NCBI GenBank assembly: GCA_018659605.1
Contig: JABJMA010000069.1
Location: forward strand, 1-52,802
Length of the DNA stretch: 52,802 bases
Direction of reading: 5' to 3'
Source: Rickettsiales bacterium
Lineage (GTDB): Bacteria > Pseudomonadota > Alphaproteobacteria > Rickettsiales > JABIRX01
In this document: positions 36,280-52,802 of the stretch, one piece after another
Layout: each line of letters opens with the position of its first letter
Position numbering within the stretch: the first letter of the stretch is position 1
Translations under genes and position numbers: made by a program
Notes under the pieces: generated by a model
Databases searched by the model: none
What the model was told of the DNA's origin: nothing
What the model saw: only the letters and a program-made list of their open reading frames with translations

Positions 36280-36829
36280 AGATCATACTAACAAGTTTGA
36301 AGATTTGTTCTATTCAATACCTAAATATGCTCGGGATATTCAGGTTAATATTCGATCTGTGTTAAATCCTGATCATGCTCCACTTGATCAAAAATTACTA
36401 ATTGGCATTGCGTTAGCATCTGGTTATGCAGCTGGAAATCACAAAGTTGAAGAGGCTTTATTGGAAACAGCAGAATATTTATTAGATAGCAAGACTATAG
36501 ATGTTATTAAATCTGCCACATCAATTATGGCAATGAGTAATATGTATCATAGATTTACGAGTTTGGTATCAGATGAAGAATATTCTAGGCTACCAATTGG
36601 TCTTCGAATGAATGTCATTTGTGATCACGGTATTCCAAAGCGTGAATTCGAATTATATTCTTTCGCTATTGCAGTGGTAAATGGCTGCCGGGTTTCTATT
36701 GATACTCATGAGAGGACCTTAAAAAAGGAAGGGGTTAGACGCGAGCAGATCCAGCACGCAGCTAAAATAGCTTCAGTAATTTATGCCCTAGCTAGAGTAA
36801 TTGAGATTGATACTCCAGCTAATTCATAA
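36269..36829 (+). CDS. AhpD-like alkylhydroperoxidase (carboxymuconolactone decarboxylase family) with a CxxS variant motif
   Basis: GLRMNVI...FELYSFAIAVVNGCRVSIDTHERTLKKEGVRREQI aligns with my recollection of M. tuberculosis AhpD (GLRMN...[25 protein letters not shown]). Confidence 0.75.
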   Translation: MQNKDHTNKFEDLFYSIPKYARDIQVNIRSVLNPDHAPLDQKLLIGIALASGYAAGNHKVEEALLETAEYLLDSKTIDVIKSATSIMAMSNMYHRFTSLVSDEEYSRLPIGLRMNVICDHGIPKREFELYSFAIAVVNGCRVSIDTHERTLKKEGVRREQIQHAAKIASVIYALARVIEIDTPANS

Positions 36830-36899
36830 ATTCTTCTTGTATAAGCAGAATTTTTAGGGACAACTTATTAGTTCTTGTATAGATTATATATAAAATAAT

Positions 36900-38111
36900 A
36901 TGACATTACTTCGCAATATTTTGATCAGTCTTATTTTATTCTGCGCAAGTCAGGCTATGGCCGCAAGCTTTGATGAATATTTATTGCGTTTGGAAAATCA
37001 TCCTCAGATTTTATCAATTTTAGCAGCTGCTGAAAGTTCAAATCAATTAGCTAAAGCTGCTATGGGGTTGCCTGATCCAGAAGTTATCTTGGGCGTTGAT
37101 AATGTTCCCGTGGATGATTTTCAGTTTGATCAATTTCTACCAACGGCTAAAGTTCTTGGCTTTAATCAGATGATTCCAAATCATGGTTTGCGCAAGGCTA
37201 AAGCTAACAAATATAGCAATATATCGGCTAAACAAAAGCTTGTTGCGGAATATCAATCTGCTCATTTAAAAGCTTACTTAATCACGGCTTTAGTTGAATT
37301 AGAAAAAGTAAAAAAGCTCGAGAAATATACTAAACAGCAATTAAAATTATATAAAAGTTTGGAAAACTATTTCGCTGGTCAACTTGAAGCCGGGCGTTCG
37401 ATATATGGTAGTTTTTCAGAAATGGATGTAGAGCGAGCAGAGATAGAACAAGATCTTAATAATTTGAAGTCTGAGCGTATTGCTATTGAAGCTGAGTTGA
37501 TTCGTTTAATTGATGAAGTACCCACTCTGACTATATCTAAAGTACAGTTAGTAAAATGGTCTGATGATTTAAACCAAATTTACCCAGTTAGGATTATGCG
37601 TGATGATTTAAAGATCGCTGATAGTAGTGTTACAATAGCGAATAAATCTTATAATTCAAATTATGGTATTAGCGCTTTATACAAACAGCGCGAGGAGGGT
37701 AGTGGTTATTCGGGCGAAGATTGGTTCTCTGTGCATACTGCGATATCAATACCATTATGGTATAATTCAAATCAACAACCTAAATTACGAGCGGCTATGG
37801 CTTCTAAACAAAAAGTTGCATTTTCATTAGATGATACGAAGCGGTTATGGAAAAAACAACTTACTATAATAATATCGAAGCGCAATACGGCATTAGAAAA
37901 TATCAAGCTTTTACAGAAAAAGCATAAAGCTATTAAAAATTTTGTTTCAAGTGCGAAACGTAATTATGAAGCTGGTAGCGCTGAATTAGAGTCGGTATTG
38001 GATGCAGAGATTAATGCGTTGACAATAGCATCTCAGCTAGAAAAACAGAAAAGCCGCTTTTTAAAATTATCAGCTTCATTTAACAGCCATATTATTCCAA
38101 ATATACAATGA
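36900..38111 (+). CDS. TolC-family outer membrane efflux protein (CusC-like)
   Basis: Signal peptide ending QAMA-A and two coiled-coil/OEP repeats. It lies immediately upstream of cusBA with a 4-nt overlap. Confidence 0.75.
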   Translation: MTLLRNILISLILFCASQAMAASFDEYLLRLENHPQILSILAAAESSNQLAKAAMGLPDPEVILGVDNVPVDDFQFDQFLPTAKVLGFNQMIPNHGLRKAKANKYSNISAKQKLVAEYQSAHLKAYLITALVELEKVKKLEKYTKQQLKLYKSLENYFAGQLEAGRSIYGSFSEMDVERAEIEQDLNNLKSERIAIEAELIRLIDEVPTLTISKVQLVKWSDDLNQIYPVRIMRDDLKIADSSVTIANKSYNSNYGISALYKQREEGSGYSGEDWFSVHTAISIPLWYNSNQQPKLRAAMASKQKVAFSLDDTKRLWKKQLTIIISKRNTALENIKLLQKKHKAIKNFVSSAKRNYEAGSAELESVLDAEINALTIASQLEKQKSRFLKLSASFNSHIIPNIQ

Positions 38112-39793
38112 GAAAAATAGTCTTTTTATGTCAGGTTCTATCGTTAATTTTTATATTTAACTCAAGCTTCGCAGCGGAAGAAAAATATTTCTGTCCTATG
38201 CATCCACATTATATAGCTACAGAACCTGGATCATGTCCTATTTGTGGAATGACTTTAGTCTTGCGAGAGGAAGAAGCTGCGGATGATTCTGTATCAGCGC
38301 AAACATCATCATCAGAATTAGCAGAAGGGGCTATCACTATTGCTCCAGAGACCATCCAGAATATTGGAGTTAGAACCGAGAAAGCGACTGCAGCATGGTT
38401 TGGAACTAGCATTAGAAGCTATGGCTTGGTAACAGAAAATGTGCGTATACAGCATGAGATATCTAGCAGAATTGCTGGCTGGATTGAGGATTTGAATGTA
38501 ACTGCGGTTGGCGATGAAGTAGTGAAGAATATGCAATTATTCACTATGTATAGTCCTGATTTAATCTCAGCTCAGCAAGATTATCTAGCAGCCATTAGCT
38601 CGGGATCCAGGGGCAGAATTACTTCAAGTGCTCATCGTTTAAAATCACTCGGTGTACAGGACAAAACATTAGGCCAAATTAAAAAGCTGAAAAGCAAATT
38701 GGAGTATGTGCCTTATTATGCAGAGGTGGATGGTATTATAAGTGGTTTAAATATTAAGCAAGGAACCTATATAAAATCTGGTATGCAGCTGGCTGTTATT
38801 CAAAATTATTCGAGCGTGTGGATTAATGTTTCCGTTGCAGAGAAAGATTTGGCTTTTCTAGTTAAAGATATGAAAGCAGAAGTAACATTACCTAATATGT
38901 CTAACGAAGTACGCAGCGCTAGAATAGATTATATTTATCCAACTATTGATAAATCGAGCCGAACCGGACAAGTGCGTTTGGTATTAGATAATCAAGATGG
39001 GGTGCTAAGGCCAGGGGCTTATGCAGATGTTGTGTTCGAAACCACGTCAAAGAAACGTTTAGCGGTAGCATCTGAGGCAATACTTCGCAGTTCAGATGGT
39101 AATTTTGTGGTAATAGCACTGGGTGATGGTCGTTTTAGATCGCAAAAAGTCAAAACAGGAATTTATAATAAAGGTTTGATTCAGGTTTTATCTGGGGTTG
39201 TAGAAGGTGATGAGATTGTGGTTAGTGGCCAATTTTTAATTGATTCAGAAAGTAATCTAAGCGAGTCTTTTAGAAAGATGCAGCGGTTGCAAGAACCATT
39301 AGCAGAATTAGTTTTGGATGATGATCAATTAAGATCTATAGATCATTTAATCGATAGCAGTATTTATATAGCAAAAACTCTAACCGGTAATACAGCAATC
39401 GATGTAAAAATGCTTGATCCAGCGCTAGCATTAAAAGAATATTTGTTAGTTAATTTTAGAGGCACCAAGCTAGAATTTGTTTTAGATAATGCGGAGGCCG
39501 CGATTGTACAAGCTAAGCAAGCAATTACTGATAAAGAATTACAAATAGCCTTAGCAAGTTTACTCGGCGCCCTAGAGCCATGGTTGCTTGAGGGGAAGCC
39601 AAGTTATTATCAAGCAAAAGGCTTAACATTATATACCGATGAGGTGAGTGGTAATTTATGGCTACAGCTTGAAGGTAAAGCTAATAATCCATATGGTATA
39701 GGCGATGCTGTCGTCAAACCTTGGCCGCAAGCTGAAACTCCAGAGGATGATATGCAAATGCCAAATATGTCAGAAGCGGATGCAGGAAATTAA
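38108..39793 (+). CDS. cusB: Efflux RND periplasmic adaptor (CusB-like) with N-terminal heavy-metal-binding domain and long C-terminal extension
   Basis: YFCPMHPHYIATEPGSCPICGMTL (CP..H....PG.CP.CGM motif), an HlyD/MFP core (MYSPDLISAQQDYL, GQFLIDSESNL), and about 170 additional mostly helical residues ending MQMPNMSEADAGN. Confidence 0.85.
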   Translation: MRKIVFLCQVLSLIFIFNSSFAAEEKYFCPMHPHYIATEPGSCPICGMTLVLREEEAADDSVSAQTSSSELAEGAITIAPETIQNIGVRTEKATAAWFGTSIRSYGLVTENVRIQHEISSRIAGWIEDLNVTAVGDEVVKNMQLFTMYSPDLISAQQDYLAAISSGSRGRITSSAHRLKSLGVQDKTLGQIKKLKSKLEYVPYYAEVDGIISGLNIKQGTYIKSGMQLAVIQNYSSVWINVSVAEKDLAFLVKDMKAEVTLPNMSNEVRSARIDYIYPTIDKSSRTGQVRLVLDNQDGVLRPGAYADVVFETTSKKRLAVASEAILRSSDGNFVVIALGDGRFRSQKVKTGIYNKGLIQVLSGVVEGDEIVVSGQFLIDSESNLSESFRKMQRLQEPLAELVLDDDQLRSIDHLIDSSIYIAKTLTGNTAIDVKMLDPALALKEYLLVNFRGTKLEFVLDNAEAAIVQAKQAITDKELQIALASLLGALEPWLLEGKPSYYQAKGLTLYTDEVSGNLWLQLEGKANNPYGIGDAVVKPWPQAETPEDDMQMPNMSEADAGN

Positions 39794-42700
39794 AAATAAA
39801 ATACATGATCCTCGGGATTCTCTAGTAGCAAAAGTTATTGAGTGGTCTGTATCAAATCAGCTTTTGGTAGTTGCGGCTATGATTGCATTATTAGTTGCTG
39901 GTGTACTCGCCGTAAAGAATGCGCCGCTTGATGCTATACCTGACTTATCTGATACTCAGGTGATTATCCGGACTGAGTTCCCTGGTCAATCACCGCAGAT
40001 AGTTGAAGATTTAGTTACATATCCGCTTTCAACAACAATGCTTGGTTTGCCTAAAACTAAAGATGTACGCGGTTACTCCATGTTTGGTACATCATTTATA
40101 TATATTATTTTTGAGGATGATGTTGACCAATATTGGGCAAGGAGCCGAGTTACAGAAGCTCTGGTTAAAATCCAAGGTGATCTGCCAGATAACGCTAGGC
40201 CGCAAATGGGCCCAGACGCTACAGGCGTTGGTTGGGTATATCAATATGCGCTGATTGATAAAACAGGTAAATATGATTTGGCCTATCTGAGATCGTTACA
40301 AGATTGGTTTTTAAAGTTTGAGCTTGCGACTGTAGATGGAGTTTCTGAGGTTGCGTCCGTTGGTGGTTTTGTCAAAGAATATCAGGTCTTGGTCGATCCA
40401 AATCGCCTAAGAGCTTATAACGTTCCCCTGCACCGTATTACTAATGCGGTTAGAGCTGCGAGTAAGGAAGTGGGCGGGAGAGTCATAGAGCAAGGCGAGA
40501 TGGAATTAATGATTCGCTCAAAAGGTTATATAACCAACATCGAAGATTTACGTAATATTGTGGTCTTTGCCAAGGAAGGGACACCGGTTATCCTTGGGGA
40601 TGTAGCACAAATTATTGAAGGTCCGGAGCTAAGGCGTGGGGTCGTTGAATTAAATGGTGAAGGTGAAGTTGTTAGCGGCATTGTTATTATGCGCTCTGGC
40701 GAGAATGCACTTTCAGTTATTGAAGGTGTAAAGGCTAAGCTCGAAGAGCTAAAAGAAGGTTTACCTGAAGGTGTTGAGATTGAAACTGTTTATGATAGAG
40801 CGCCTTTAATTGAGGGAGCGGTTACATATTTAAAGCATAAACTTATCGAAGAAGGTTTGGTTGTTGCGTTTGTATGTTTAATATTTTTGTTGCATATCAG
40901 ATCAGCCTTAGTTGCGATTATCACGCTGCCATTAGGTGTGCTTGCGGCTTTTATCATTATGTCATATCAAGGTATTACGGCAAATATCATGTCACTTGGT
41001 GGTATTGCAATTGCAATTGGTGTGATGGTTGATGCCTCGGTTGTGATGGTTGAGAATGCCCATAGGAAAATTTCTGACATGCCAAAAGATAGCTCAAAAC
41101 GGGCTAAGCAAGCAGCAATATTATTAGCTGCCAAAGAAGTTGGACCTGGACTTTTCTTCTCGCTTTTGATTATTACAGTTTCATTCTTGCCGGTATTTGC
41201 TTTAACCGGGCAATCATACAAGTTATTCTCACCACTTGCTTTTACCAAAACATACGCAATGGCATTTGCCTCTATTTTATCGATAACTATTGTACCGATC
41301 TTAATGCTATGGTTGATTAAAGGGCGCATCCGTAAAGAGTCAGAAAATCCGATTAATAGATGGTTTATTAAATTATATACACCATTGCTTGAAAAAGCTT
41401 TGCGCTTTAAAGGGACGAGCATCTTTTTATCCATCATGTTATTATTGAGTTTGGCCTGGCCATTAGCTAAAACTGGCTCAGAATTTATGCCGGCCTTATA
41501 TGAAGGTGAGTTGCTTTATATGCCGACAATGCTTCCGGGTGTATCCATTGCTAAAGCCAAAGAAGTATTAGCGCAAACTAATCGTTTAATCAAAACTGTT
41601 CCAGAAGTAGAGCGAGTATTTGGTAAAGTTGGAAGGGCTGATACTGCAACAGATCCAGCGCCAATTTCGATGATTGAAACTTGGATAAAATTAAGGCCAA
41701 AAGAAGCATGGCGTAAAAACTTAACAATCACAGAATTAACTAAAGAGATAGATGGGAGATTAAAATTACCAGGATTGGTTAATAGTTTTGGTTATCCAAT
41801 TAAGATTCGTATGGATATGATCTCTACTGGTATTAGAACACCTGTTGGAATTAAAATATCTGGATCTGACTTAGCTCAAATTAATAAAATTGTTTTAGAT
41901 GTTGAGGAAGCTGTTAAAAATGTTCCGGGTACAAGATCTGCTTTTGCTGATCGTGTTATTGGTGGTAAATATTTAGAGATAACTCCGGATCGTAATGAGT
42001 TAGCGCGGCAGAATATTGATTTAGAGATGTTCCAAAATATTATTCAAACCTCTCTTGGAGGTATGAAAATTTCTGAATCGGTACAGGGCCGAGAACGTTA
42101 TAATATTATGCTCAGATATGAGAGGAGGTTTAGGGAGGCGCCATCAGATCTAGCTAATATTTTAGTTCCAACACCGCAAGGTCAGCATATTCCTCTAGGT
42201 GAATTAGCTACAATAGCATTTACCGAAGGCCCACCAATGATTAAATCAGAAAATGCGCGTTTAACAGGTTGGGTATTTGTTGATATTGCAGGTAGAGATA
42301 TTGGTTCATATGTAGCAGATGCGCAAAAAATTGTTGCAGATAAGGTTAAATTACCTGCTGGAAATTCAATTAGTTGGTCAGGTCAGTTTGAGCAAATGCT
42401 TGAAGCAGAAAAGCGTATGCGTATTGCTATTCCGTCAGCCATTTTGATAATATTTTTACTATTGATGCTACATTTTGGCTCGGTGGATCGAACTTTAATG
42501 GTGATGATCTCACTGCCATTTGGTTTAATAGGAGGTGTTTGGGCATTATATTTAGCCGATTATAATTTTTCTGTTGCAGTAGGCGTTGGCTTTATTGCTC
42601 TGGGCGGAATAGCAACTGAAACGGCAGTTGTGATGTTAATTTATCTAGATCAGAAAATGCTCGATATGCCACCAAATACGCTGAAAGATTTGCGTAGTAA

Positions 42701-42926
42701 TGTTATACATGGAGCGGTGCTTAGGGTGCGCCCAAAACTTATGACCGTATCTGTTACTATGGCAGGATTAATGCCAATATTCGTAACCGATGGCCTCGGA
42801 TCAGACGTATTGCGCCGTATCGCTTTGCCTATGGTTGGTGGTATGGTTACAACGACAATCCTAACCCTTATTATAATACCAGTGATTTATTATATCTGGG
42901 AAGGTCGTAGATTTGATAAAGGATAA
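39780..42926 (+). CDS. cusA: Cu(I)/Ag(I) efflux RND transporter CusA
   Basis: HME-RND with GELLYMPTMLPGVS and DPAPISMIETWIKLRPKEAW, which match the E. coli CusA Met-cluster regions. The start is set at the ATG at 39780 (MQEIKNKIHDP...), overlapping the cusB stop. The ORF-track start at 39705 lies inside cusB. Confidence 0.92.
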   Translation: MQEIKNKIHDPRDSLVAKVIEWSVSNQLLVVAAMIALLVAGVLAVKNAPLDAIPDLSDTQVIIRTEFPGQSPQIVEDLVTYPLSTTMLGLPKTKDVRGYSMFGTSFIYIIFEDDVDQYWARSRVTEALVKIQGDLPDNARPQMGPDATGVGWVYQYALIDKTGKYDLAYLRSLQDWFLKFELATVDGVSEVASVGGFVKEYQVLVDPNRLRAYNVPLHRITNAVRAASKEVGGRVIEQGEMELMIRSKGYITNIEDLRNIVVFAKEGTPVILGDVAQIIEGPELRRGVVELNGEGEVVSGIVIMRSGENALSVIEGVKAKLEELKEGLPEGVEIETVYDRAPLIEGAVTYLKHKLIEEGLVVAFVCLIFLLHIRSALVAIITLPLGVLAAFIIMSYQGITANIMSLGGIAIAIGVMVDASVVMVENAHRKISDMPKDSSKRAKQAAILLAAKEVGPGLFFSLLIITVSFLPVFALTGQSYKLFSPLAFTKTYAMAFASILSITIVPILMLWLIKGRIRKESENPINRWFIKLYTPLLEKALRFKGTSIFLSIMLLLSLAWPLAKTGSEFMPALYEGELLYMPTMLPGVSIAKAKEVLAQTNRLIKTVPEVERVFGKVGRADTATDPAPISMIETWIKLRPKEAWRKNLTITELTKEIDGRLKLPGLVNSFGYPIKIRMDMISTGIRTPVGIKISGSDLAQINKIVLDVEEAVKNVPGTRSAFADRVIGGKYLEITPDRNELARQNIDLEMFQNIIQTSLGGMKISESVQGRERYNIMLRYERRFREAPSDLANILVPTPQGQHIPLGELATIAFTEGPPMIKSENARLTGWVFVDIAGRDIGSYVADAQKIVADKVKLPAGNSISWSGQFEQMLEAEKRMRIAIPSAILIIFLLLMLHFGSVDRTLMVMISLPFGLIGGVWALYLADYNFSVAVGVGFIALGGIATETAVVMLIYLDQKMLDMPPNTLKDLRSNVIHGAVLRVRPKLMTVSVTMAGLMPIFVTDGLGSDVLRRIALPMVGGMVTTTILTLIIIPVIYYIWEGRRFDKG

Positions 42927-43050
42927 TTTTATTTATTATCCTAGGGGTAGGAGAACCCATCTTATACCATCATCTCTTTGGCCGGGTAAGGCGGGGAATT
43001 ATCCTCAAGATCTAAGGGCTACAGCATGCGTATAACAATTAATTTTATAG

Positions 43051-43079
43051 TTGACAGTTGGTTGATTTGGCCTTAAAAA
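43051..43079 (+). promoter_or_regulatory. Candidate sigma70-type promoter for the cys leader/operon
   Basis: TTGACA at 43051-43056, an exact 17-nt spacer and TAAAAA at 43074-43079. It lies 26 nt upstream of the uORF ATG. Sequence-only prediction. Confidence 0.35.
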
Positions 43080-43104
43080 CTATCTCATTAATAAAAATTT
43101 ACTA

Positions 43105-43191
43105 ATGAACACAAATTATAAAAATATAGTTTCATCAAATGCTTCCGGCGCTATGTCATCTGTGTATTGCTGTCTGTGTTGTTGTTGCTAA
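43105..43191 (+). CDS. 28-codon upstream ORF MNTNYKNIVSSNASGAMSSVYCCLCCCC; candidate Cys leader peptide
   Basis: ATG at 43105 and TAA at 43189-43191. Six of the last seven sense codons are Cys (TGC TGT CTG TGT TGT TGT TGC). It ends 67 nt before the cysG ATG on the same strand. There is no clear Shine-Dalgarno sequence. Confidence 0.45.
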   Translation: MNTNYKNIVSSNASGAMSSVYCCLCCCC

Positions 43192-43258
43192 TTATTAGCA
43201 TTTGATCCGTTCCTTTTGATTTTTATTACTTTTGCCTTTTGAGGCTCCCCTTTTTTAG

Positions 43259-44722
43259 ATGACAAATTCCCAAAATAACCCTAGCGATATCAAACAAGAT
43301 CAATATTTGCCGGTATTTTTATCTACAGATAAAAGTAAAATTTTATTGGTTGGTGGTGGTGCTATTGCGGTGGCTAAGTTACGCCTAATCACTGATTTTG
43401 CTAGTGATATTACAGTAATTGCCAAAGAAGTTCATGATGAGATTAAGCTTTTAGCAGAAAGTAAAGATTTTAAAATAATTGAAGCAGAATTTGCATTGGA
43501 TCAACTTGGTGGTTTTGATATTATTGTGGCGGCAACGGATGACTCTAAGGTAAATGCGGAGATCTCAAAGCATGCAAAACAGCAAAATATTTTGGTGAAT
43601 GTGGTTGATGATAGCTCGCTCAGTAACTTTATTTTTGGCTCAGTTGTTAAAAGAGATAATCTGACAGTTGCTATCTCATCAAATGGTATTTCGCCAGTGT
43701 TAACACGTTTGATTAAGCAAAAGATTGAGCATCTCTTACCTATGACTTTGGGTAAGTTAACCAACTTTATTGCTAAATATCGTGATCAGGTCAAGCAGTC
43801 CCTAACAAATATACAGGCGCGTCGCTTGTTTTGGCAGGATGTAATTGAAGGTAACATTGCAGAAGAAGTGTATATTGGTAATGAACAAAAAGCCGGCGAG
43901 TTATTAGTAGGCGCATTGAGTGATACAGATGATAAAAACACAGCAGCTTTATATTTAATAGGAGCTGGTCCTGGGGACCCTGATTTAATTACTTTAAAAG
44001 CATCACGCCTTATCGCAAAAGCGGATGTTATTTTATATGATAGATTAGTTTCAAAAGAGCTGTTTAATTTTGCGCGCAAAGAAGTAATAAAGATTAATGT
44101 TGGTAAAACGAAAAGCCTGCATCGTTATCGTCAAAGTGAGACTAATGAGCTGATTAAAGAATATGGTAAGAAGGGTAAGATCATTGTTCGATTAAAAGGC
44201 GGTGATACTGCAGTTTTTGCTAATTTGATAGATGAGATTGAAGCTGCAAAAGAAATTAACATCCCATATCAAATAGTTCCAGGGATCACTGCAGCCAGTG
44301 GAGCTGCAGCATATTTGGGCATAGCTTTAACAATAAGGGATGAAGTTAGATCAGTTCGCTACCTGACTTATTATGAGAAGGATTTACTAAGAGAAGATTA
44401 TTGGCAAGAATTAGCGGGTTCAACAGATAGTTTGGTATTTTATATGTCGACCCATCATATTGAAGAGATTATAAATCAGCTGCTTAAATATGATATGGAT
44501 GGCTCCACTCCTATCATTGCGGTGTCCCAGGCTACCACCCCGTTTCAAGCAGAATATCTAGCAACATTAGCGGATTTTAATAATAAATATCGCAATCATA
44601 AATTTGCTTCACCAACTATTGTAATTATTGGAAAAGCAGTTAATAACTATAAGGATTTTTCTTGGCATGAATCTAGTAAAATAGAGGGATTATATTTTGA
44701 TCAATTGGAGGCAAGAACTTAA
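43259..44722 (+). CDS. cysG: Siroheme synthase (precorrin-2 dehydrogenase/ferrochelatase + uroporphyrinogen-III C-methyltransferase)
   Basis: N-terminal LPVFLSTDKSKILLVGGGAIAVAKL Rossmann motif and C-terminal methylase LYLIGAGPGDPDLITLKA. 487 aa. Confidence 0.92.
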   Translation: MTNSQNNPSDIKQDQYLPVFLSTDKSKILLVGGGAIAVAKLRLITDFASDITVIAKEVHDEIKLLAESKDFKIIEAEFALDQLGGFDIIVAATDDSKVNAEISKHAKQQNILVNVVDDSSLSNFIFGSVVKRDNLTVAISSNGISPVLTRLIKQKIEHLLPMTLGKLTNFIAKYRDQVKQSLTNIQARRLFWQDVIEGNIAEEVYIGNEQKAGELLVGALSDTDDKNTAALYLIGAGPGDPDLITLKASRLIAKADVILYDRLVSKELFNFARKEVIKINVGKTKSLHRYRQSETNELIKEYGKKGKIIVRLKGGDTAVFANLIDEIEAAKEINIPYQIVPGITAASGAAAYLGIALTIRDEVRSVRYLTYYEKDLLREDYWQELAGSTDSLVFYMSTHHIEEIINQLLKYDMDGSTPIIAVSQATTPFQAEYLATLADFNNKYRNHKFASPTIVIIGKAVNNYKDFSWHESSKIEGLYFDQLEART

Positions 44723-45456
44723 TGGATAAAGATTTAGAATTATATATTGAGAATCTTTCAGTGACTAAAAAACTCTCTTGGAGTGAGCGTTTGGAATTTG
44801 TATCTAAAGAATTTCCAGGACGAGCTATATTTTCAACAAGTTTTAGTATTGAGGATCAGATTATTACTCACATTATCGGAACAAATAAGCTCGATATTGA
44901 TATTTTTACTTTAGATACGGGTAGAATGTTTGATGAAACATACGAAGTTTGGCAACAAACAAAAGAGAAGTATAATATTAATATCAAGCCATATTATCCT
45001 GATAGCGATAGGCTGAAAGAATATGTAGAAACTAATGGTATTAATGCATTTTATGAAAGCAAAGATCTGCGTTTATCTTGTTGCGGCATCAGGAAGGTTG
45101 AGCCATTAAAGCGGGCTTTGCAAGGCTATGATGTTTGGATAAGTGGCCTGCGTACTTCGCAATCCAAAGGCAGAGATGATAAGGATTTGTACGAAATAGA
45201 TTCTACTTTTGAAGTCGTCAAACTCTATCCGATCTTAGAATTAAGCGATGATCAAATATGGGCATTTATTAAGAAAGAAGATATTCCATATAATAAATTG
45301 TATGATAAAGGTTTTACATCAATAGGCTGTGCTCCATGCTCGCAGGTGCCAACCGACCCAGATGATCCACGCTCTGGTCGATGGTGGTGGGAAGATGAAA
45401 ATCAAAAAGAATGTGGATTACATATGGTTGATGGTAAATTAGTGAGGAAAAAATAA
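44722..45456 (+). CDS. cysH: Assimilatory adenylylsulfate (APS)-type reductase CysH with Fe-S cluster cysteines
   Basis: PAPS_reduct fold with a C-terminal ECGLH motif. It also carries the CC...CxxC set (SCCGIRKVEPL and SIGCAPCS) characteristic of [4Fe-4S] APS reductases. Confidence 0.88.
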   Translation: MDKDLELYIENLSVTKKLSWSERLEFVSKEFPGRAIFSTSFSIEDQIITHIIGTNKLDIDIFTLDTGRMFDETYEVWQQTKEKYNINIKPYYPDSDRLKEYVETNGINAFYESKDLRLSCCGIRKVEPLKRALQGYDVWISGLRTSQSKGRDDKDLYEIDSTFEVVKLYPILELSDDQIWAFIKKEDIPYNKLYDKGFTSIGCAPCSQVPTDPDDPRSGRWWWEDENQKECGLHMVDGKLVRKK

Positions 45457-46922
45457 TGGCTGTAGATATTAATAAATTAAAACAATTTATTGCTACATTA
45501 AGCGGTGAAGAACAAGTTTGGCTAAATGGTTATTTAACTGCAATGGTAGCTGGAGGGTCATCTGTAAGTTCTGGTGGTAGTAATATCCCAAAAACTAAAC
45601 TAACTATTTTTTATGGTACGGAAACAGGTAATTCAAAACAGCTAGCTAGTGACCTTGCTAATAGTTTTAATCAAGCGTCATTTCAAGTAAAGACGCAAGA
45701 TTTAGAAATTTATAAAGCTGTAAAATTAGCCAAAGAAACCAAAGCGATATTTATTATTAGTACGCATGGTGAAGGTGAGTTCCCCGAGTCTGTAAAAGGT
45801 TTCTTTGAAGAATTGGGCATTAAAAAACCTAATTTGAAGAAGTTAGATTATGCACTTATTGCACTTGGGGATAGTTCATACCCATTATACTGTCAATCAG
45901 GTAAAGATCTCGATGCATTGTTATTAGAATTTGGTGCTAGCAATATCATCCCAAGGGCGGATTTGGATTTAGATTATAATGATCATATTAATGGTTGGGT
46001 CCAGAGTTTTATAGCAAAAGCTGGTAGTGGTGATGTAGCTCCGGTTATTACTGTTGCAACTAGCGATAAGGTAGATTTGCATAAAGTGTATCAAGGCGAG
46101 ATTCTAGCTAATATCAATTTAAGTGATGATGGCTCTAATGTTGAAATTCGTCATATTGAAATTAGCTCTGATGAAGAGATTGTCTTTCGGCCTGGTGATA
46201 GTCTATCTTTAGCTCTTAATCCAGAAGATGAATATGTTAAATCGGTCGGTCATAAGGAAGAAAAAATAGCACCAAGATTATATTCTATTGCTTCATCTCC
46301 AGAATATCATGATGGCGAAGTGCATTTAACTGTTAGGGTTGCTTATCACATAGATGAGAATGGTCAGGAAGGAACGGGGTTATGTTCCGGTTATTTAGCA
46401 TCTTTGGCAGAAGGTAGTAATATTGAATTTACTATTAAACCAAATAACCAATTTAGATTGCCGGATCATAGTTTAGAGCAGGATATTATTCTAATTGGAC
46501 CAGGTACGGGAGTTGCACCATTTCGATCATTCTTGGCTGATCGTGCGGCAAATTCTAGCCCGGGACGCAATTGGTTGTTTTTTGGCGCACAGCATTTTCA
46601 TAGTGATTTTCTATATCAAACCGAAATACAAGACTTCGTATCCCAAGGATTATTGAGTAAAGTATCTTTGGCCTTTTCACGGGATCAGGAACATAAAATC
46701 TATGTCCAGGACCGGATGAGTGAGGAAGAGGAAGAGCTATTTTCTTGGATTAAAGGCGGAGCAATTATTTACGTTTGTGGTGATAAGGATCATATGGCTA
46801 AGGATGTTGAAAATACGCTGCTTAACATTATAGGTAAATATGCGCATTTAGATGCGGATGGAGCGAAGGAATATTTATATAATATGAAACAAGATAACAG
46901 ATATTTAAAAGATGTTTATTAA
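45456..46922 (+). CDS. cysJ: Sulfite reductase [NADPH] flavoprotein component (short form)
   Basis: Flavodoxin domain TIFYGTETGNSKQLA, FAD motif RLYSIASS, NADPH domain LIGPGTGVAPFRSF and C-terminal RYLKDVY. 488 aa. Confidence 0.88.
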   Translation: MAVDINKLKQFIATLSGEEQVWLNGYLTAMVAGGSSVSSGGSNIPKTKLTIFYGTETGNSKQLASDLANSFNQASFQVKTQDLEIYKAVKLAKETKAIFIISTHGEGEFPESVKGFFEELGIKKPNLKKLDYALIALGDSSYPLYCQSGKDLDALLLEFGASNIIPRADLDLDYNDHINGWVQSFIAKAGSGDVAPVITVATSDKVDLHKVYQGEILANINLSDDGSNVEIRHIEISSDEEIVFRPGDSLSLALNPEDEYVKSVGHKEEKIAPRLYSIASSPEYHDGEVHLTVRVAYHIDENGQEGTGLCSGYLASLAEGSNIEFTIKPNNQFRLPDHSLEQDIILIGPGTGVAPFRSFLADRAANSSPGRNWLFFGAQHFHSDFLYQTEIQDFVSQGLLSKVSLAFSRDQEHKIYVQDRMSEEEEELFSWIKGGAIIYVCGDKDHMAKDVENTLLNIIGKYAHLDADGAKEYLYNMKQDNRYLKDVY

Positions 46923-46931
46923 GGAAATAAT

Positions 46932-48611
46932 ATGACTGATAAAATAAAATTAAGCGAAGTAGAAAAAATCAAAACCGAAAGTAACTATCTCAGAGGTACT
47001 TTGGAGGAAGGTTTTAATGATCCATTAACAGGAGCTATTTCTGAATCGGACACACAATTGATTAAGTTTCATGGTAGCTATCAGCAGGATGATCGTGAAG
47101 CACGATCACGTCGTGCTCTCAAAAAATTAGAAAAAGCCTTTTCATTCATGCTACGCCTACGTATTCCCGCAGGGAGAGTTACCGCGAAGCAGATGCTGAA
47201 TATCTTTAAAATCACAGATGAAAATGCGACTGGTATTGTTAAGATAACCACCAGACAAACGATTCAATTGCATGGTGTTATTAAATCTAAGCTAAAGCCA
47301 ACTTTGCAGTTCTTTGATAAATTTGGTTTGGATTCCATAGCTGCATGTGGTGATGTAAATCGAAATATTGTTACAGGTAGTAATTTTGAAGATAGTGAAC
47401 ATAATTCAGAAAGTCTGCATAAGGATTTAATCAAATTTACACATGATCTCAGTGAGAAGTTCTTGCCACATACCAAAGCTTATCGAGAAATCTGGCTAGA
47501 CGCTGAAAAGATTACTGAAGATGAGGGGCAAATAGAGCCTATTTATGGTAAAGTATTCTTACCAAGAAAGTTCAAAATGGCGATAGCGATACCACCATTT
47601 AATGATATTGATGTTTATGCAAATGATTTTGGTCTAGTTGCAATTATTGAATCAGGTCGGTTAGTAGGCTTTAATGTTCTGGCTGGTGGTGGAATGGGCG
47701 TGACTCATGGTAATGAAGAGACTTATCCGCGTTTAGCATCTGAGATTGGCTTTATAACCCCAGAGCAAGCTCTAGATGTTGCCGAAGCTGTGGTTACTTT
47801 CCAACGTGATAATGGCAATAGATCTGATCGTAAGCAATCAAGACTTAAATATACTATCGATAAGGTAGGGTTGGATAATTTTAAAGCTGATGTTGAAAAA
47901 CGGAGTGGCATTAAATTTGAAACTATCAGGCCATTTGAATTCAAATATAGAAATGATATTATTGGTTGGCGTAAGGATTATAAAGGTGATTGGCATTATA
48001 CAGTATTTACTGAGAATGGCCGAATTATGGACCAAGATTTTGCTAAATGTAAAACAGCTATTCGTGAGATCTCAGAATTAGGTATTTCGGAATTTCAATT
48101 TACCGCAAATCAGAATCTTTCAATTACAAATATCAAGGAGCAAGATAAAGCAAAAGTTGATGAGATATTGGGCAAACATACCATTCTTGAATATCAAAAA
48201 ACTTTATCAGCAATTAGAATTAGTTCTATGGCTTGTGTAGCTCTGAACACTTGTAGTTTAGCGCTCGCTGAAGGACAGCGTTATATGCCAAGCTTAATAA
48301 CTAAAATTGAGCCATTGCTAGAGAAGTATGGTCTAAAGGATAAAGAAATAACCATTCGTATGACAGGATGTCCTAACGGATGTGCGCGGCCATATGTTGC
48401 AGAAATAGGTTTTGTTGGCACATCGCTTGGTAAATATAATTTTCATCTAGGTGGTGATCGTCTAGGTATGAGGCTCAATACTAAATATAAAGAGTCATTA
48501 GATGAAGCACAGATTCTATCTGAGTTAGATGGCTTCTTTGCACTTTATAGCAAGGAAGGTGGGTCCCAAGATTTTGGTGATTTTATTCACCAATATATAA
48601 GTAATAAGTAA
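46932..48611 (+). CDS. cysI: Sulfite reductase [NADPH] hemoprotein component
   Basis: 559 aa with siroheme/4Fe-4S cysteine clusters (ACVALNTCSLALAE, TGCPNGCARPY). Confidence 0.93.
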   Translation: MTDKIKLSEVEKIKTESNYLRGTLEEGFNDPLTGAISESDTQLIKFHGSYQQDDREARSRRALKKLEKAFSFMLRLRIPAGRVTAKQMLNIFKITDENATGIVKITTRQTIQLHGVIKSKLKPTLQFFDKFGLDSIAACGDVNRNIVTGSNFEDSEHNSESLHKDLIKFTHDLSEKFLPHTKAYREIWLDAEKITEDEGQIEPIYGKVFLPRKFKMAIAIPPFNDIDVYANDFGLVAIIESGRLVGFNVLAGGGMGVTHGNEETYPRLASEIGFITPEQALDVAEAVVTFQRDNGNRSDRKQSRLKYTIDKVGLDNFKADVEKRSGIKFETIRPFEFKYRNDIIGWRKDYKGDWHYTVFTENGRIMDQDFAKCKTAIREISELGISEFQFTANQNLSITNIKEQDKAKVDEILGKHTILEYQKTLSAIRISSMACVALNTCSLALAEGQRYMPSLITKIEPLLEKYGLKDKEITIRMTGCPNGCARPYVAEIGFVGTSLGKYNFHLGGDRLGMRLNTKYKESLDEAQILSELDGFFALYSKEGGSQDFGDFIHQYISNK

Positions 48612-48622
48612 GGTAATAGATT

Positions 48623-49519
48623 ATGCAAAAGCATTTAAAAGCATTAGAAGATGAGAGTCTTTATATTATAAGAGAAGCTGCAGGAGAGTTTAAAAATCCT
48701 GTAATATTATATTCTGTTGGTAAGGATTCTTCAGTGCTACTGCACTTAATCCTGAAAGCATTTTATCCGGCTAAGCCACCATTTAAATTCTTGCATGTTG
48801 ATACAGGTTGGAAATTTAAAGAGATGATAAAATTCCGTGATGAGCAAATGACCAAGCATGGTTTGGATTTAATTACCTATACTAACCCAAGGGGTGATAA
48901 AGAAAGCATAGTTCCATTTGGTAAAACTAGTAAGATCTATACCGATATTATGAAAACTGAAGGCTTACGAAAAATGCTGAAAGATCATGAATTTGATGCA
49001 GCTATTGGTGGCGCTAGGCGTGACGAGGAAAAGTCACGTGCTAAAGAGCGTATTTTCTCACATAGAAATGAATTCCAAGCTTGGGACCCTAAAGATCAAA
49101 GGCCAGAATTATTTAATATCTTTAATACTCAGATAGCGCCAGGGGAATCTATGCGAGTTTTTCCATTATCAAATTGGACAGAATTGGACATTTGGGAATA
49201 TATTCATGATGAGAATATACCACTCGTACCACTGTATTTTGCCAAAGAGCGTCCTTATGTATTACGATCTGGAACGAAAATCATGGTAGATGATGATAGA
49301 TTACCAATTGCTCCAGACGAAGAAGTTCAAACTGGTATGATTAGATTTAGAACTCTGGGTTGTTATCCATTGACTGGAGCAATAGATTCGACTGCTAGTA
49401 GCTTATCTGAGATTTTAGAAGAAATTAGAGCAAGTAAATATTCAGAAAGACAAGGTCGGTTAATAGATGGCGATCCAAGTTCGAGTATGGAGAAAAAAAA
49501 GAAAGAAGGTTATTTTTAA
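48623..49519 (+). CDS. cysD: Sulfate adenylyltransferase subunit 2
   Basis: PP-loop [30 protein letters not shown] and C-terminal KKKEGYF. 298 aa. Confidence 0.93.
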
Positions 49520-49526
49520 CTATTTT

Positions 49527-49576
49527 CCATGGAGGGTTTGTTTGCCCTCAATGGAAGCGCCTAATACCGCTTTTTA
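49527..49576 (+). terminator. Two consecutive hairpins between cysD and cysN; the second is terminator-like
   Basis: Hairpin 1: CCATGGAGGG (49527-36) / CCCTCAATGG (49545-54), 9 of 10 bp paired, with an 8-nt loop. Hairpin 2: AAGCG (49555-59) / CGCTT (49568-72), followed by TTTTA. Confidence 0.3.
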
Positions 49577-49635
49577 AACTTCTTTAAGGATGAAGGTAAG
49601 TAAATAAAATAAAACATAAATTTTAAGGAATAAAA

Positions 49636-50976
49636 ATGAGTCACGATATTTTAAAATTTTTAACTGCAGGTAATGTAGATGATGGTAAATCTAGCTTCTT
49701 AGGTAGATTACTTTTTGATAGTAATGCCGTATATGAAGATCATATAAGAGAAGTTGAAACTTTAAGTAAAAAGTTCAATCAAGATTTTACTGATTTATCA
49801 TTATTGGTTGATGGATTAGAGTCTGAGCGTGAGCAGAAAATAACGATAGATTGCGCTTATCGTTATTTTACCACTGATAAACGTAAATTTATTATAGCTG
49901 ATAGCCCGGGCCATGAGGAATATACACGTAATATGGCCGTTGCTGCATCTAATAGTGATCTGGCGGTGATTTTACTAGATGTAACTAAGCCTCTGCAAAC
50001 TCAGGCAATTAGACATAGCTATATTGCCTATTTATCAGGCATTAGGCATTTTATTGTTGCGGTTAATAAAATGGACTTAGTATCTTATGATGAAGGTAAG
50101 TTTGAAGAAATGACCAAAGAATATCAACGGAAAACCGCCAAATTCTTGGTTAATAGCCAAATTCACTTTGTACCAATTTCGGCTAAATTAGGTGGAAATG
50201 TTGTGAACATGTCTAAAAAGATGGATTGGTATCAAGGTAGAACAGTTTTGGATTTATTGGAAACTATAGATATAACCGAAGATGTTAATTTTGTTGCTAC
50301 AAGATTACCGATTCAGAATGTTGTTAAAGATGAGCAAGATGATAGTAATACTAGATATTTATTAGGTCGCTTAGTATCTGGTAATTTGTCAATTGGTCAA
50401 ACTGTCAAAATATGGCCAAGCCTGCGAACTGCAAATATCACACAAATATTGGTAGCTGGAATTGAGTCTGAAACGGCAAAAATGGGTAATTCAGTTGCTA
50501 TCGTTTTAGATACAGAAACTGATATAGCACGTGGATCTGTGTTAACAGATGAATCAGATCACCCATCATATGATAAGGAGCTATCAGCAAATTTAATTTG
50601 GTTTAAATCAGAGGTAACAAACTTATCTGATCATCCGGAATATCTAATGAAATTAAATCATAATTTGGTTAATGCTCGAATTACTAAGGTTAAAGGTGCC
50701 ATGAATTTGGATAATCTAGAACTTATTGAAACAGATTTAGCAAAGCAAAATGATATTATTGATACTACAGTAAAAATCGCTACAAAACTACCCTTTGATT
50801 ATTTTGCAAATTCTAAACATACAGGGTCATTTTTATTGATCGACAAGGTATCGAATGAAACTATTGCTTGTGGTTTAATAAAATATGTAAATAAATCTCA
50901 CAATAAATCAGGCTTCTTTAGTAAGCTTTTTAAACTTTCCAAGAGTGATAGTAGCTATGATAGCTCCGGGCTTTAA
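49636..50976 (+). CDS. cysN: Sulfate adenylyltransferase subunit 1 (GTPase), without a fused APS kinase domain
   Basis: G1 GNVDDGKSS, G3 DSPGHEEY and G4 NKMD. At 446 aa there is no CysC domain. RBS-like AAGGA lies 8 nt upstream. Confidence 0.9.
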   Translation: MSHDILKFLTAGNVDDGKSSFLGRLLFDSNAVYEDHIREVETLSKKFNQDFTDLSLLVDGLESEREQKITIDCAYRYFTTDKRKFIIADSPGHEEYTRNMAVAASNSDLAVILLDVTKPLQTQAIRHSYIAYLSGIRHFIVAVNKMDLVSYDEGKFEEMTKEYQRKTAKFLVNSQIHFVPISAKLGGNVVNMSKKMDWYQGRTVLDLLETIDITEDVNFVATRLPIQNVVKDEQDDSNTRYLLGRLVSGNLSIGQTVKIWPSLRTANITQILVAGIESETAKMGNSVAIVLDTETDIARGSVLTDESDHPSYDKELSANLIWFKSEVTNLSDHPEYLMKLNHNLVNARITKVKGAMNLDNLELIETDLAKQNDIIDTTVKIATKLPFDYFANSKHTGSFLLIDKVSNETIACGLIKYVNKSHNKSGFFSKLFKLSKSDSSYDSSGL

Positions 50977-51014
50977 CTAATTAAATAGAACTAACTTAAA
51001 TATAAGGTATTAAA

Positions 51015-51947
51015 ATGACAATTTACAGTGATTTAACAGAGCTAGTTGGAAAAACTCCATTAGTAAAATTAGGTAAAATGAATACAAGCAATAATATTGT
51101 AGCTGCGAAGCTTGAATATTATAATCCAACCAATTCTGTAAAAGATAGAATAGCTGTGAGTATGGTAGACACTGCTGAGAAATTAGGTAAAATTAAAGCT
51201 GGAGAATCAGTTCTGATTGAGGCAACTAGTGGTAATACAGGAATTGGACTCGCATTTGTTGCAGCGATTAAGGGTTATAGGTTAATTTTAACAATGCCGG
51301 AATCAATGTCTATTGAGCGTCGTAAATTATTAAAAGCTTATGGTGCAGAAATTGTATTAACTGAAGCTGCGCTTGGAATGAAAGGTGCAGTTGCTAAGGC
51401 TGAAGAGTTAAGTGGTGAAATTAGCAATTCTGTAATCATGAAGCAATTTGCAAATTTAGCTAATGTTGAAATTCATAAAAAAACTACAGCAGAAGAAATT
51501 TGGCAAGACACGGATGGTAAAATTGATATATTTGTAGCTGGAGTAGGAACCGGGGGAACTATTACAGGTGTTGGACAAGTTCTAAAACAATATAATCCTA
51601 ATGTACAAATCGTTGCAGTTGAACCAAAAGATAGCCCTGTATTATCTGGCGGTCAACCTGGGCCACATAAAATCCAAGGTATTGGTGCTGGCTTTATCCC
51701 AGATATTTTAGATCAATCTGTAATTGATGAAGTTATTCAAGTGTCAAATACTGATGCAGTTGAAACTGCAAGGGAATTGGGCAGAAGTGAAGGTATCTTA
51801 GGTGGTATTTCATCTGGTGCTGCAGCATTTGCAGCTATTAAGATTGCAAAACGTCCTGAGAATAAAGGTAAAATAATTACATTCATCTTACCTTCTTTTG
51901 GTGAGCGTTACTTATCTACTGTATTATTTGAAAATATTGCAGCCTAA
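51015..51947 (+). CDS. cysK: Cysteine synthase A (O-acetylserine sulfhydrylase)
   Basis: PLP lysine motif [21 protein letters not shown] and [10 protein letters not shown]. 310 aa. Confidence 0.93.
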
Positions 51948-52112
51948 AAAATTTTGGGTATAAATATAAGATTGGTAGTTGTTTCTGAACTTTATAAATT
52001 GATAGTTTACAAGTTCATCAGAGTTGTAAAGATTTAATTTCTGCTACTGATCATGTAAAAAAGATATATATGTTATAGCTTCGATTTATCTTATGATTAA
52101 CTAGAATTTATC

Positions 52113-52595: not shown

Positions 52596-52628
52596 TTATA
52601 CGGGTGGAGTTTTTCAACCATAAATATT

Positions 52629-52802
52629 GAATTTAGTAAATCAAGGGCGGGAGGACCCCGCCCCTACGAGTTTCGACATTCGTTATGAAATATGAATTAT
52701 GTAATTGGGTGAATATGTGATTCTCACCATTAACGTGTAGCTATGTTAATTATGTGGTGGATGATCACCCCGTAGGGGCGGGGTCCTCCCGCCCGTGATT
52801 GA
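52629..52802 (+). repeat. Full copy of the MITE-like element running into the window edge
   Basis: Left arm GGGCGGG-AGGAC-CCCGCCC at 52645-52663, then the core. The perfect right arm GGGCGGG-GTCCT-CCCGCCC at 52776-52794 is followed by GTGATTGA. The outer flank GAATTTAGTAAATCAA resembles GAATTCGGTTAATCCC at 5875. Confidence 0.85.

Follow-up and report, generated by a model that had tools for sequence, protein, structure and literature searches.

A candidate cysteine-sensing leader peptide in front of the sulfate-assimilation operon cysGHJIDNK in a low-GC alphaproteobacterial lineage

We analyzed a 52,802-nt stretch of DNA from an uncultured Rickettsiales bacterium (contig JABJMA010000069.1, hereafter the window) and concentrated on a short upstream open reading frame (uORF) that lies directly in front of cysG, the first gene of a cysG-H-J-I-D-N-K operon. 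We propose, at a probability of roughly 75–80%, that this uORF encodes a leader peptide that senses cysteine and controls cysGHJIDNK. The same interpretation had been offered in an initial annotation made from the window alone, and the comparison of cysG loci from related genomes supported it. What this comparison shows for the putative sensor is a conserved ORF, a C-terminal tract of Cys codons, a promoter, a linkage to cysG, a hairpin at the stop codon and a signature of selection at the RNA level.

In the window, six of the final seven codons of the uORF (43105-43191) encode cysteine (43168-43173 and 43177-43188), with the stop codon TAA following at 43189-43191. The initial annotation had singled out this run as exceptional for the window, and so it is: cysteine makes up 0.9% of the residues in the 42 long ORFs of the window, and at least six Cys per eight residues did not arise in any frame of 200 mononucleotide shuffles of the window, so the run is more than chance would produce. 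The tract TGYTGYTGYTGYTAR occurs a single time in the window and, among 99 fetched loci, is confined to cysG leaders. A second Cys-rich match of the six-frame translation, near 22773 on the minus strand, lies inside a DctM-type transporter gene and was dismissed. Located on the same strand as the operon and between a conserved promoter and cysG, the uORF represents the first cistron of an amino-acid biosynthetic operon, and the cysG ATG at 43259 leaves a spacer of 67 nt after the uORF stop. Upon re-reading the DNA, the coordinates that had been given for the ORF, for the promoter-like site and for the two hairpins (TGCTAA/TTAGCA and GCC...GGC) all turned out to be correct.

The initial annotation had anticipated that a short ORF with a C-terminal Cys run would be kept in front of cysG in related genomes while its other positions drift, and this is the pattern that we observed. 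Loci containing cysG were gathered by a genome scan, by a metagenome scan with a 15-sequence CysG alignment, and by a protein search combined with contig look-ups; CysG identities are given relative to the window's CysG throughout, and the nearest genome records to the window are metagenome-assembled 'Rickettsiales bacterium' genomes. Eleven of the 12 distinct loci with a CysG at least 46% identical carry, upstream of cysG, a uORF of 26–43 codons that ends in a Cys run. All relatives with the uORF have 5–8 C-terminal Cys codons, the tract directly abuts the stop codon in 10 of the 11 loci, and the first Cys codon is found at codon 21–23 in seven of them. The N-terminal two-thirds of the peptide, on the other hand, cannot be aligned between lineages, as illustrated by MQEINLNYNLNSGSNRKSISMCCCCCCC, MTNESESKQIRSFSQDSLVYALVMMPSKNCCCCC and ...SPASFCCCCRCCC. 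For frames of 26–43 codons to stay open by chance in 10 independent AT-rich lineages, the combined probability is about 1e-11. A uORF with a Cys run was found in none of the 82 loci having a CysG identity of 44% or less; among 80 metagenome loci with identities of 36–42%, the sole Cys-rich matches came from high-GC genomes, where a conserved upstream gene was read out of frame. Presence versus absence of the uORF across the CysG-identity groups gives a Fisher p of ~2e-13, a value that applies to phylogenetically related loci. Ahead of the Cys run, serine is the commonest residue of the uORF (47 of 237, or 20%, in window 43105-43167 and the counterparts from L001 to L097), and a Met codon precedes the first Cys by 1–6 codons in 8 of the 11 loci (AMSSVYCC, SSSMPCCCCC, KSSMACCCCC, SISMCCCCCCC). 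These residues may point to an alternative start, an influence of the nascent peptide, a sensing of serine as the precursor of cysteine, or a constraint from RNA structure.

The gene neighborhood points in the same direction. The order cysG-cysH-cysJ follows the leader in every relative whose contig reaches past cysG. The neighboring gene on the upstream side differs in essentially every locus, including genes with CMD (carboxymuconolactone decarboxylase), N_methyl-domain, Pyr_redox, SBP_bac_11 and HNH assignments as well as others. Because the upstream neighbor varies in this way, the uORF is tied to cysG and not to the cusCBA genes that precede it in the window.

The uORF is preceded by a sigma-70-type promoter, which the initial annotation had described as a near-consensus TTGACA-17-TAAAAA site at 43051-43079; the coordinates were right, and a perfect TTGACA, followed after 17 nt by a TA-rich -10 element, is found 21–40 nt before the uORF start in 7 of the 11 loci. 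In the window, 25 nt separate the end of the -10 element from the uORF ATG. A promoter match of 10 out of 12 positions is reached by only 6% of random 180-nt segments of the window, and the similarity to the closest relative, L001 (CysG 82%), begins exactly at the -35 element. Our promoter scan did not list the 43051-43079 site. TAAAAA does not end in the T that the scan demands of a -10 element, and the promoter call therefore relies on conservation in relatives. Transcription is predicted to start near 43086-43087, yielding a short 5' untranslated region (UTR) without a Shine-Dalgarno (SD) sequence. A core SD motif (GGAG, GAGG or AGGA) precedes only 10 of the 43 genes in the window, and an SD-less uORF start is therefore normal for this genome. 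Five of these 10 core-SD genes lie in the cys operon, or six if a distant GAGG before cysG is counted.

To see how selection acts on the leader, we compared the window with L001; between the -35 element and the cysG ATG, the alignment of the two is gap-free. Identity amounts to 22% in the 100 nt upstream of the -35 element, 83% in the promoter (43051-43079), 76% from the end of the -10 element to the uORF start (43080-43104), 91% in the uORF and 92.5% in the spacer, compared to 79% for cysG overall and 50% for its four-fold degenerate sites. Within the uORF, codon positions 1, 2 and 3 are identical at 27, 25 and 27 of 29 sites, respectively. Because conservation at the third codon position does not fall behind that at the first two, the whole leader is under purifying selection at the nucleotide level, which indicates that selection on the leader acts on the RNA.

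A structural feature that recurs across the loci is a small hairpin whose 5' arm is formed by the last Cys codon and the stop codon. It is present in the same place in 10 of the 11 loci, with L088 as the exception, and a comparison to shuffled downstream sequence gives a Fisher-combined p of ~6e-7 for these related loci. The third base of the stop codon covaries with its partner in the hairpin through compensatory changes from A-U to G-C pairs. Across loci the 3' arm is located 3–9 nt downstream, with a loop of 3–9 nt, as in GCUAG-UUC-CUAGC (L002), UGUAAC-N9-GUUACA (L096) and GUUGUUAG-U7-CUAGCAGU (L097). Codon choice shows a corresponding bias, with the last Cys codon being TGC in 8 of 11 loci compared to 11 of 59 for the other Cys codons of the run (p = 0.0008). 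Since the 3' arms did not line up when the stop regions were aligned without gaps, the hairpin statistics were computed by script. In the purine-poor spacer, we found no downstream complement to the 3' arm that could serve as an equivalent of the classical region 4.

The spacer between uORF and cysG has an unusual composition. Over all 11 loci, spacers of 42–105 nt contain 62–74% pyrimidines, 6–13% G and 11–25% C, and in the window the 60 nt before cysG, at 75% pyrimidine, rank top among 43 gene-upstream regions, the next one reaching 60%. A second small hairpin within the window's spacer contains a GAGG 14 nt from the cysG ATG, which the initial annotation had taken as the cysG ribosome-binding site (RBS); this motif is not conserved even in the closest relative, L001, which has TAGG instead. 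A second mini-ORF that ends at a UAG abutting the cysG AUG was also considered and rejected, as it is not conserved. Regarding overall folding, the z-score of the minimum free energy (MFE) is -0.9 for the window's leader (43085-43275) and -1.6 with slightly different boundaries, and it averages -1.1 across 10 lineages (p = 0.014). RNAalifold revealed no shared structure for seven full leaders, in a MAFFT alignment that did not register the stop codons. The leader is thus predicted to have modest structure and not a riboswitch-like fold.

We also looked for elements by which such a leader might control its operon. A scan of 42800-43400 for canonical terminators returned none, the only hairpins having stems of 4–6 bp, and the U6 run of the window's leader sits 5 nt away from a hairpin stem. 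This agrees with the caution of the initial annotation that no textbook terminator/antiterminator pair is in place. There is likewise no terminator between cusA and the leader promoter, and canonical terminators are not enriched over the 20 kb from 32803 to 52802, where nine were found versus 11 expected, a scarcity that is consistent with a reliance on factor-dependent termination. Neither SD-led initiation nor hairpin terminators appear to be of much importance in this organism. Searches against Rfam gave no relevant family, either for the whole window at gathering thresholds or for 42927-43320 at E values up to 10. The idea that the stop hairpin and a U-rich tail form a weak terminator masked by the ribosome was rejected on logical grounds, because such a device would give read-through at plentiful cysteine and termination in starvation.

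Two groups of relatives depart from this architecture. L089 (CysG 60%) has a different leader (1751-1985) with a 52-codon uORF ending in ...MPVSVCMQDCCMRMMRTMRTGVFLLFL, which contains a cluster of three Cys, five Met and three Arg. Some 30 nt before cysG, this leader harbors a strong canonical terminator (1934-1970) with a 15-bp stem, AAAAGCCCCAAAAAA...TTTTTTGGGGCTTTT, and a T-rich tail; no antiterminator was evident in simple folds. The L089 leader looks like a classical attenuator that may sense sulfur amino acids, and this atypical locus is the only one with a canonical terminator. Another copy of cysG, in the opposite orientation, is present on the same contig and may have arisen from misassembly. 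In L098 and L099 (CysG 43–44%, G+C 47–49%), the uORF is missing and a divergent gene for an Rrf2-family regulator adjoins cysG on its upstream side, followed in L098 by a PALP (cysK-like) gene further out. Such a divergent Rrf2 gene was seen only in relatives lacking the uORF, and at the window locus itself no regulator gene flanks the leader, as one might in a protein-regulated cys operon of the CysB or Rrf2-CymR type, though a regulator may well be encoded elsewhere in the genome. This distribution suggests that a protein regulator and the leader peptide replaced one another in evolution.

On this basis, we propose that the uORF is the gene for a leader peptide on the cysGHJIDNK mRNA, and that the supply of charged tRNA(Cys) is sensed by the ribosomes translating it. 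Transcription from TTGACA-17-TAAAAA would start ~18 nt before the uORF AUG, and the first ribosome would have to decode six Cys codons among the last seven, or 5–8 successive Cys-tRNA(Cys) across loci. When cysteine is plentiful, this ribosome would pass the tract, terminate at the UAA inside the small hairpin and leave, with the operon becoming attenuated. When Cys-tRNA(Cys) is scarce, it would stall in the tract and the sulfate-assimilation genes would be upregulated. As the first Cys codon is 21–23 codons away from the start in most loci (7 of 11), a queue may form behind the stalled ribosome. For the output step, we tentatively prefer a factor-dependent (Rho-type) mechanism, in which transcription would end prematurely, or polarity would set in, within the untranslated spacer and the beginning of cysG unless a stalled ribosome complex prevents it. 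This option is favored by the missing intrinsic terminator, the missing duplex between Cys tract and RBS, and the exceptionally pyrimidine-rich spacer.

Several points weigh against this proposal. All of its support derives from sequence, and the organisms concerned are uncultured and known only as metagenome-assembled genomes. With respect to the Rho step, the C content of the spacer is modest (11–25%), and with a ribosome halted on the first Cys codons, the larger part of the spacer would be uncovered, such that the exclusion of Rho is hard to explain. Moreover, the stop hairpin could form in the stalled as well as in the released state, and none of the output options explains its role. Finally, given that L089 has another uORF combined with a strong terminator, the output mechanism may differ between lineages.

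The same sensor could alternatively act on translation, in a manner resembling Ms5788A, ermC or cat, an output that we consider rather unlikely. In this scenario, the A-rich 5' UTR and the 5' half of the uORF would pair with the U-rich spacer (helix P1 and, in the window, helix P2), hindering the loading of 30S subunits at the SD-poor cysG start, whereas stalled and queued ribosomes would keep the spacer single-stranded; cysG would then be translated and thereby protected from polarity. The P1 duplex reaches -19.1 kcal/mol compared to a null of -8.3 ± 2.4, a figure that includes a probably untranscribed extension (43070-43078 : 43237-43245), and it is significant versus dinucleotide shuffles in the window, L001, L093 and L094, and extends over 9 bp in L090, but it is undetectable in 5–6 of the 11 loci. 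The Cys tract lies inside P2, and P2 and the stop hairpin compete for AGCA; P2 is found only in the window and L001, where neither of the two competing alternatives is a terminator, is not significant versus shuffles in any locus and is thus at best lineage-specific. A translational output would also fit with leaders being modestly more structured than shuffles, with the experimental precedent in Mycobacterium smegmatis, and with the Cys codons beginning at codon 21–23, a position from which a stalled ribosome and one that has collided with it would keep a third on the start codon, where it covers the 5' strand of P1. To probe the cysG RBS, we calculated partition-function folds at 37 °C and 15 °C in which stalled or terminating ribosomes, or a queue of three, were masked. 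Queue masking opened the spacer in L093, L094 and L088. A consistent gain in accessibility of the cysG start was, however, not observed, with mean changes over the 11 loci of -0.01 (stalled) and +0.06 (queue) and none for the window itself. A duplex between the Cys tract and the cysG RBS is absent from the window's MFE and ensemble folds, L088 being a possible exception. Folding with masked ribosomes thus lends no support to the RBS occlusion that the initial annotation had envisaged, and the non-conserved GAGG near cysG speaks against a translational output as well. An effect on mRNA stability, with a stalled ribosome and the hairpin blocking a 5'-end-dependent attack of RNase E or RNase J on the U-rich spacer and cys mRNA being longer-lived in starvation, seems improbable to us. 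Stalled ribosomes can protect mRNA, as known from the stabilization of erm mRNA, and the hairpin lies immediately 3' of the stall site in 10 of 11 loci without a terminator or antiterminator partner. The U-rich, unstructured spacer would also be a plausible RNase E substrate, and neither a terminator nor an RBS switch was found. Yet such an output would leave the very high nucleotide conservation of the whole spacer unexplained.

Explanations that dispense with a sensor altogether fare worse. That the uORF encodes a functional Cys-rich micropeptide, being metal-binding, redox-active or trans-acting and perhaps tied to the copper/silver efflux genes cusCBA, is very improbable. The initial annotation had raised a metal-binding peptide of this kind because cusCBA lies immediately upstream in the window. 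Leader peptides with functions in trans exist, such as peTrpL, and the Ser-rich stretch, often with a Met, before the tract in most relatives could hint at a constraint on the peptide. The varied upstream genes contradict a link to cus, though. In L088, a CMD-family gene (1058-1612) directly precedes the cys leader, whereas in the window the CMD gene (36269-36829) is followed by the cusC/B/A-like genes (36900-42926) and only then by the leader, so that cusCBA looks like an insertion in the window's lineage. A micropeptide is equally difficult to reconcile with an N-terminal portion that is not conserved between lineages and with synonymous positions that are as conserved as non-synonymous ones versus L001. 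We give even less credence to an untranslated element, that is, a (TGT)n repeat that is open by chance or a TGCTAA-N3-TTAGCA palindrome serving as the DNA operator of a transcription factor. It is true that the tract consists of a simple trinucleotide repeat, with 5 to 8 codons depending on the locus, and that in the window the hairpin sequence is perfectly palindromic as DNA. Against this stand the frames kept open in 10 independent lineages, an in-frame stop codon at the end of the Cys tract in 10 of 11 loci, and the failure of all 200 window shuffles to produce a Cys run. The spacing of the half-sites varies from 3 to 9 nt and the register of the palindrome shifts in L096, which fits an RNA hairpin and not the binding site of a dimeric DNA-binding protein.

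The features of the leader, the operon and the related loci are compiled in the table. The operon was delineated by genes that overlap or lie within ~120 nt of each other on one strand.

Table. Features of the candidate leader and the cys operon in the window, and corresponding features of related cysG loci (each uORF is given up to its stop codon; percentages are CysG identities to the window).
Locus	Feature	Position	Strand	Description and basis
Window	Sigma-70-type promoter	43051-43079	+	TTGACA 43051-43056, 17 nt, TAAAAA 43074-43079; conserved in relatives
Window	Predicted 5' UTR	43087-43104	+	Short, A/U-rich, ~18 nt, without SD; holds P1 5' strand 43089-43099; inferred from promoter
Window	Candidate leader-peptide ORF	43105-43191	+	28 codons, MNTNYKNIVSSNASGAMSSVYCCLCCCC; translation, counterparts in relatives
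Window	Putative regulatory Cys tract	43168-43188	+	Codons 22-28, TGC TGT CTG TGT TGT TGT TGC
Window	Stop-codon hairpin	43186-43200	+	5' arm UGCUAA (last Cys codon and stop), loop UUA, 3' arm UUAGCA
Window	Spacer	43192-43258	+	Between uORF stop and cysG start; pyrimidine-rich, G-poor: 54% U, 19% C, 13% G
Window	Small hairpin in spacer	43234-43245	+	GCCU-UUUG-AGGC, then UCCCCUUUUUU
Window	Helix P1	43089-43099 : 43218-43228	+	5' UTR with spacer
Window	Helix P2	43136-43145 : 43197-43206	+	10 bp, AUCAAAUGCU : AGCAUUUGAU; window MFE and centroid folds
Window	Operon cysG-H-J-I-D-N-K	43259-51947	+	Pfam; gene spacing and strand
Window	cysG	43259-44722	+	Pfam NAD_binding_7, Sirohm_synth_M, CysG_dimeriser, TP_methylase
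Window	cysH	44722-45456	+	Pfam
Window	cysJ	45456-46922	+	Pfam
Window	cysI	46932-48611	+	Pfam
Window	cysD	48623-49519	+	Pfam
Window	cysN	49636-50976	+	Pfam
Window	cysK	51015-51947	+	Pfam
L001	uORF			CysG 82%; MNKNYKNIVLSNASSAMSSACCCMCCCC
L088	uORF			CysG 70%; MALNKEFQLLSKVSHAMSSACCMCCC
L090	uORF			CysG 58%; MQHFNNIQFIQTFSGISSSMPCCCCCSCCC
L091	uORF			CysG 56%; MQEIVKNNILFSSSNKKSSMACCCCCPCCC
L093	uORF			CysG 55%; MQEINLNYNLNSGSNRKSISMCCCCCCC
L094	uORF			CysG 53%; MQQNNLNTTLNSLLNRSNLSVCCCCCCC
L095	uORF			CysG 51%; ...MPSFAACCCCC
L096	uORF			CysG 50%; ...SPSSICCCCCN
L097	uORF			CysG 48%; MTNESESKQIRSFSQDSLVYALVMMPSKNCCCCC
L002	uORF			CysG 46%; MDYSNSNKSFDGFTKSNIVKTFSPASFCCCCRCCC
L098	Rrf2-family gene	within 1498-2000	divergent to cysG	
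L099	Rrf2-family gene	within 1482-2000	divergent to cysG	

In the surroundings of the leader, the cusC/B/A-like genes on its 5' side encode, according to Pfam, an efflux system of OEP, CusB-like and AcrB-family components. The cusB-like ORF (38108-39793) and the cusA-like ORF (39705-42926) overlap by 89 nt (39705-39793); as the Pfam match in the cusA-like ORF begins at residue 45, the true cusA start is probably located further downstream. On the other side of the operon, a gene for an NYN-domain protein (a predicted RNase; 52113-52595, plus strand) directly follows cysK at a distance of 165 nt. The operon includes cysD and cysN and has no recognizable APS kinase (cysC) domain, and sulfotransferase genes are present in the same window: an arylsulfotransferase-like gene (Arylsulfotran_2) adjoins a sulfotransferase-family gene (Sulfotransfer_3 and Sulfotransfer_1) at 3024-5788 on the plus strand. 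For three ORFs of 759, 343 and 241 aa (18143-20422, plus; 171-1202, plus; 6196-6921, minus), no Pfam match was obtained at E values up to 1e-5. The window has a G+C content of 34% and contains, on the minus strand (9309-9703), a tmRNA gene of the two-piece (permuted) alphaproteobacterial kind (RF01849, 187 bits; RF04321, 117 bits), which places it in the Alphaproteobacteria.

Proteobacterial cysteine regulons are described in textbooks as protein-controlled, for example by CysB, with CymR/Rrf2 regulators acting elsewhere. To our knowledge, Cys-codon leader peptides have been validated only in mycobacteria. The view of the initial annotation that cysteine has no established equivalent of the classical leader peptides is outdated, since such elements have been reported for Actinobacteria (PMC1262725), mycobacteria (10.1101/834739) and cysS of Rhodobacterales (PMC8632094). 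The best-characterized example, Ms5788A of M. smegmatis, is a 90-nt small ORF (sORF) that has eight Cys codons at its C-terminus and is followed by a 97-nt spacer (Canestrari et al. 2020, bioRxiv 10.1101/834739 = Mol Microbiol 114:93). Start-codon, nonsense, frameshift and compensatory mutants established it as a cysteine-responsive attenuator, in which the Cys tract forms a duplex with the SD of the downstream gene (10.1101/834739). Our leader resembles Ms5788A and Rv0815A in having an sORF of ~29 codons, a C-terminal Cys run abutting the stop, a spacer of 67–100 nt before the first gene of a cysteine/sulfur-metabolism operon and no intrinsic terminator, and we propose a similar relief of attenuation by a ribosome stalled for lack of Cys-tRNA. 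Given the different phylum and the absence of sequence homology, the two would have originated convergently. Further differences are a predicted 5' UTR of ~14–33 nt (with the -10 element ending 21–40 nt before the start in seven loci), in contrast to the leaderless mycobacterial sORFs, and an AU- and pyrimidine-rich spacer in place of the very stable GC duplex of Ms5788A. Our leader also has the conserved hairpin of last Cys codon and stop, and lacks a pairing of the Cys tract with the RBS, consistent with folding that shows no RBS switch.

For actinobacterial cys operons, terminator-less candidate Cys leader peptides were reported in 2005, and a Rho-dependent, tna-like mode was proposed for them (PMC1262725). 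Like the element studied here, they comprise a short ORF with a Cys run near the stop and a poly-pyrimidine spacer and have no conserved terminator hairpin. They are, however, GC-rich, their poly-pyrimidine motifs were reported as not conserved, whereas pyrimidine richness extends to 11 of 11 loci in our set, and a stop-codon hairpin was not described (PMC1262725). Within the Alphaproteobacteria, the uORFC-8-2 motif before cysS in Rhodobacterales is a uORF interpreted as sensing Cys-tRNA(Cys) by ribosome-mediated attenuation (Brewer et al. 2021, PMC8632094). It shares with our leader the class of organism and the conserved Cys codons, but it controls cysS, has two tandem Cys codons at about positions 14–15 inside a stem, and employs an intrinsic terminator with a U run, whereas the leader described here precedes cysG, has a C-terminal tract of 5–8 Cys codons and lacks a terminator. 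With trpL, hisL, leuL, thrL, pheL and ilvL of Enterobacteria, it has in common a leader ORF in first position, a run of codons for the end product and, as proposed, sensing by ribosome stalling. In contrast to the trpL/hisL class, it has no GC-rich terminator with a U tract and no demonstrable antiterminator/terminator alternative, and its regulatory codons reach the stop. In the Rho-dependent tnaC-tnaAB system, a catabolic operon with an experimentally defined rut site, free tryptophan causes arrest on the nascent peptide at the stop codon. The likeness to Escherichia coli tnaC would consist in ribosome arrest right where a short ORF ends, in the lack of an intrinsic terminator and in an untranslated spacer available to Rho. 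The proposed signal is codon starvation as opposed to free tryptophan, and a rut site is suggested here by base composition alone.

Our literature searches retrieved no report of this element in Alphaproteobacteria. The principle of Cys-codon attenuation is already established, and the present comparison makes a convincing case for what would be an independently evolved, terminator-less version of it in Proteobacteria. In its most far-reaching form, which we regard with considerable doubt, the model would describe an attenuator having neither an intrinsic terminator nor an RBS-sequestering duplex, in which a queue of three ribosomes fills the uORF, holds the 5' UTR open and prevents the P1 clamp, while the stop hairpin and pyrimidine tract decide on Rho loading or mRNA decay; a ribosome-only control of the 'ribulon' type would then have replaced an Rrf2/CysB-type regulator in a low-GC alphaproteobacterial lineage. 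The element probably represents the same solution as in mycobacteria, arising independently in an uncultured low-GC alphaproteobacterial clade, in front of a complete sulfate-assimilation operon. With an Rrf2 regulator occupying the same slot in sister lineages, these loci offer a natural comparison of regulation by RNA and ribosome versus regulation by protein. At ~210 nt, the leader would be a compact, portable and putatively cysteine-responsive element, and its conserved stop hairpin and pyrimidine spacer could help to settle the output of terminator-less attenuators, including the actinobacterial ones.

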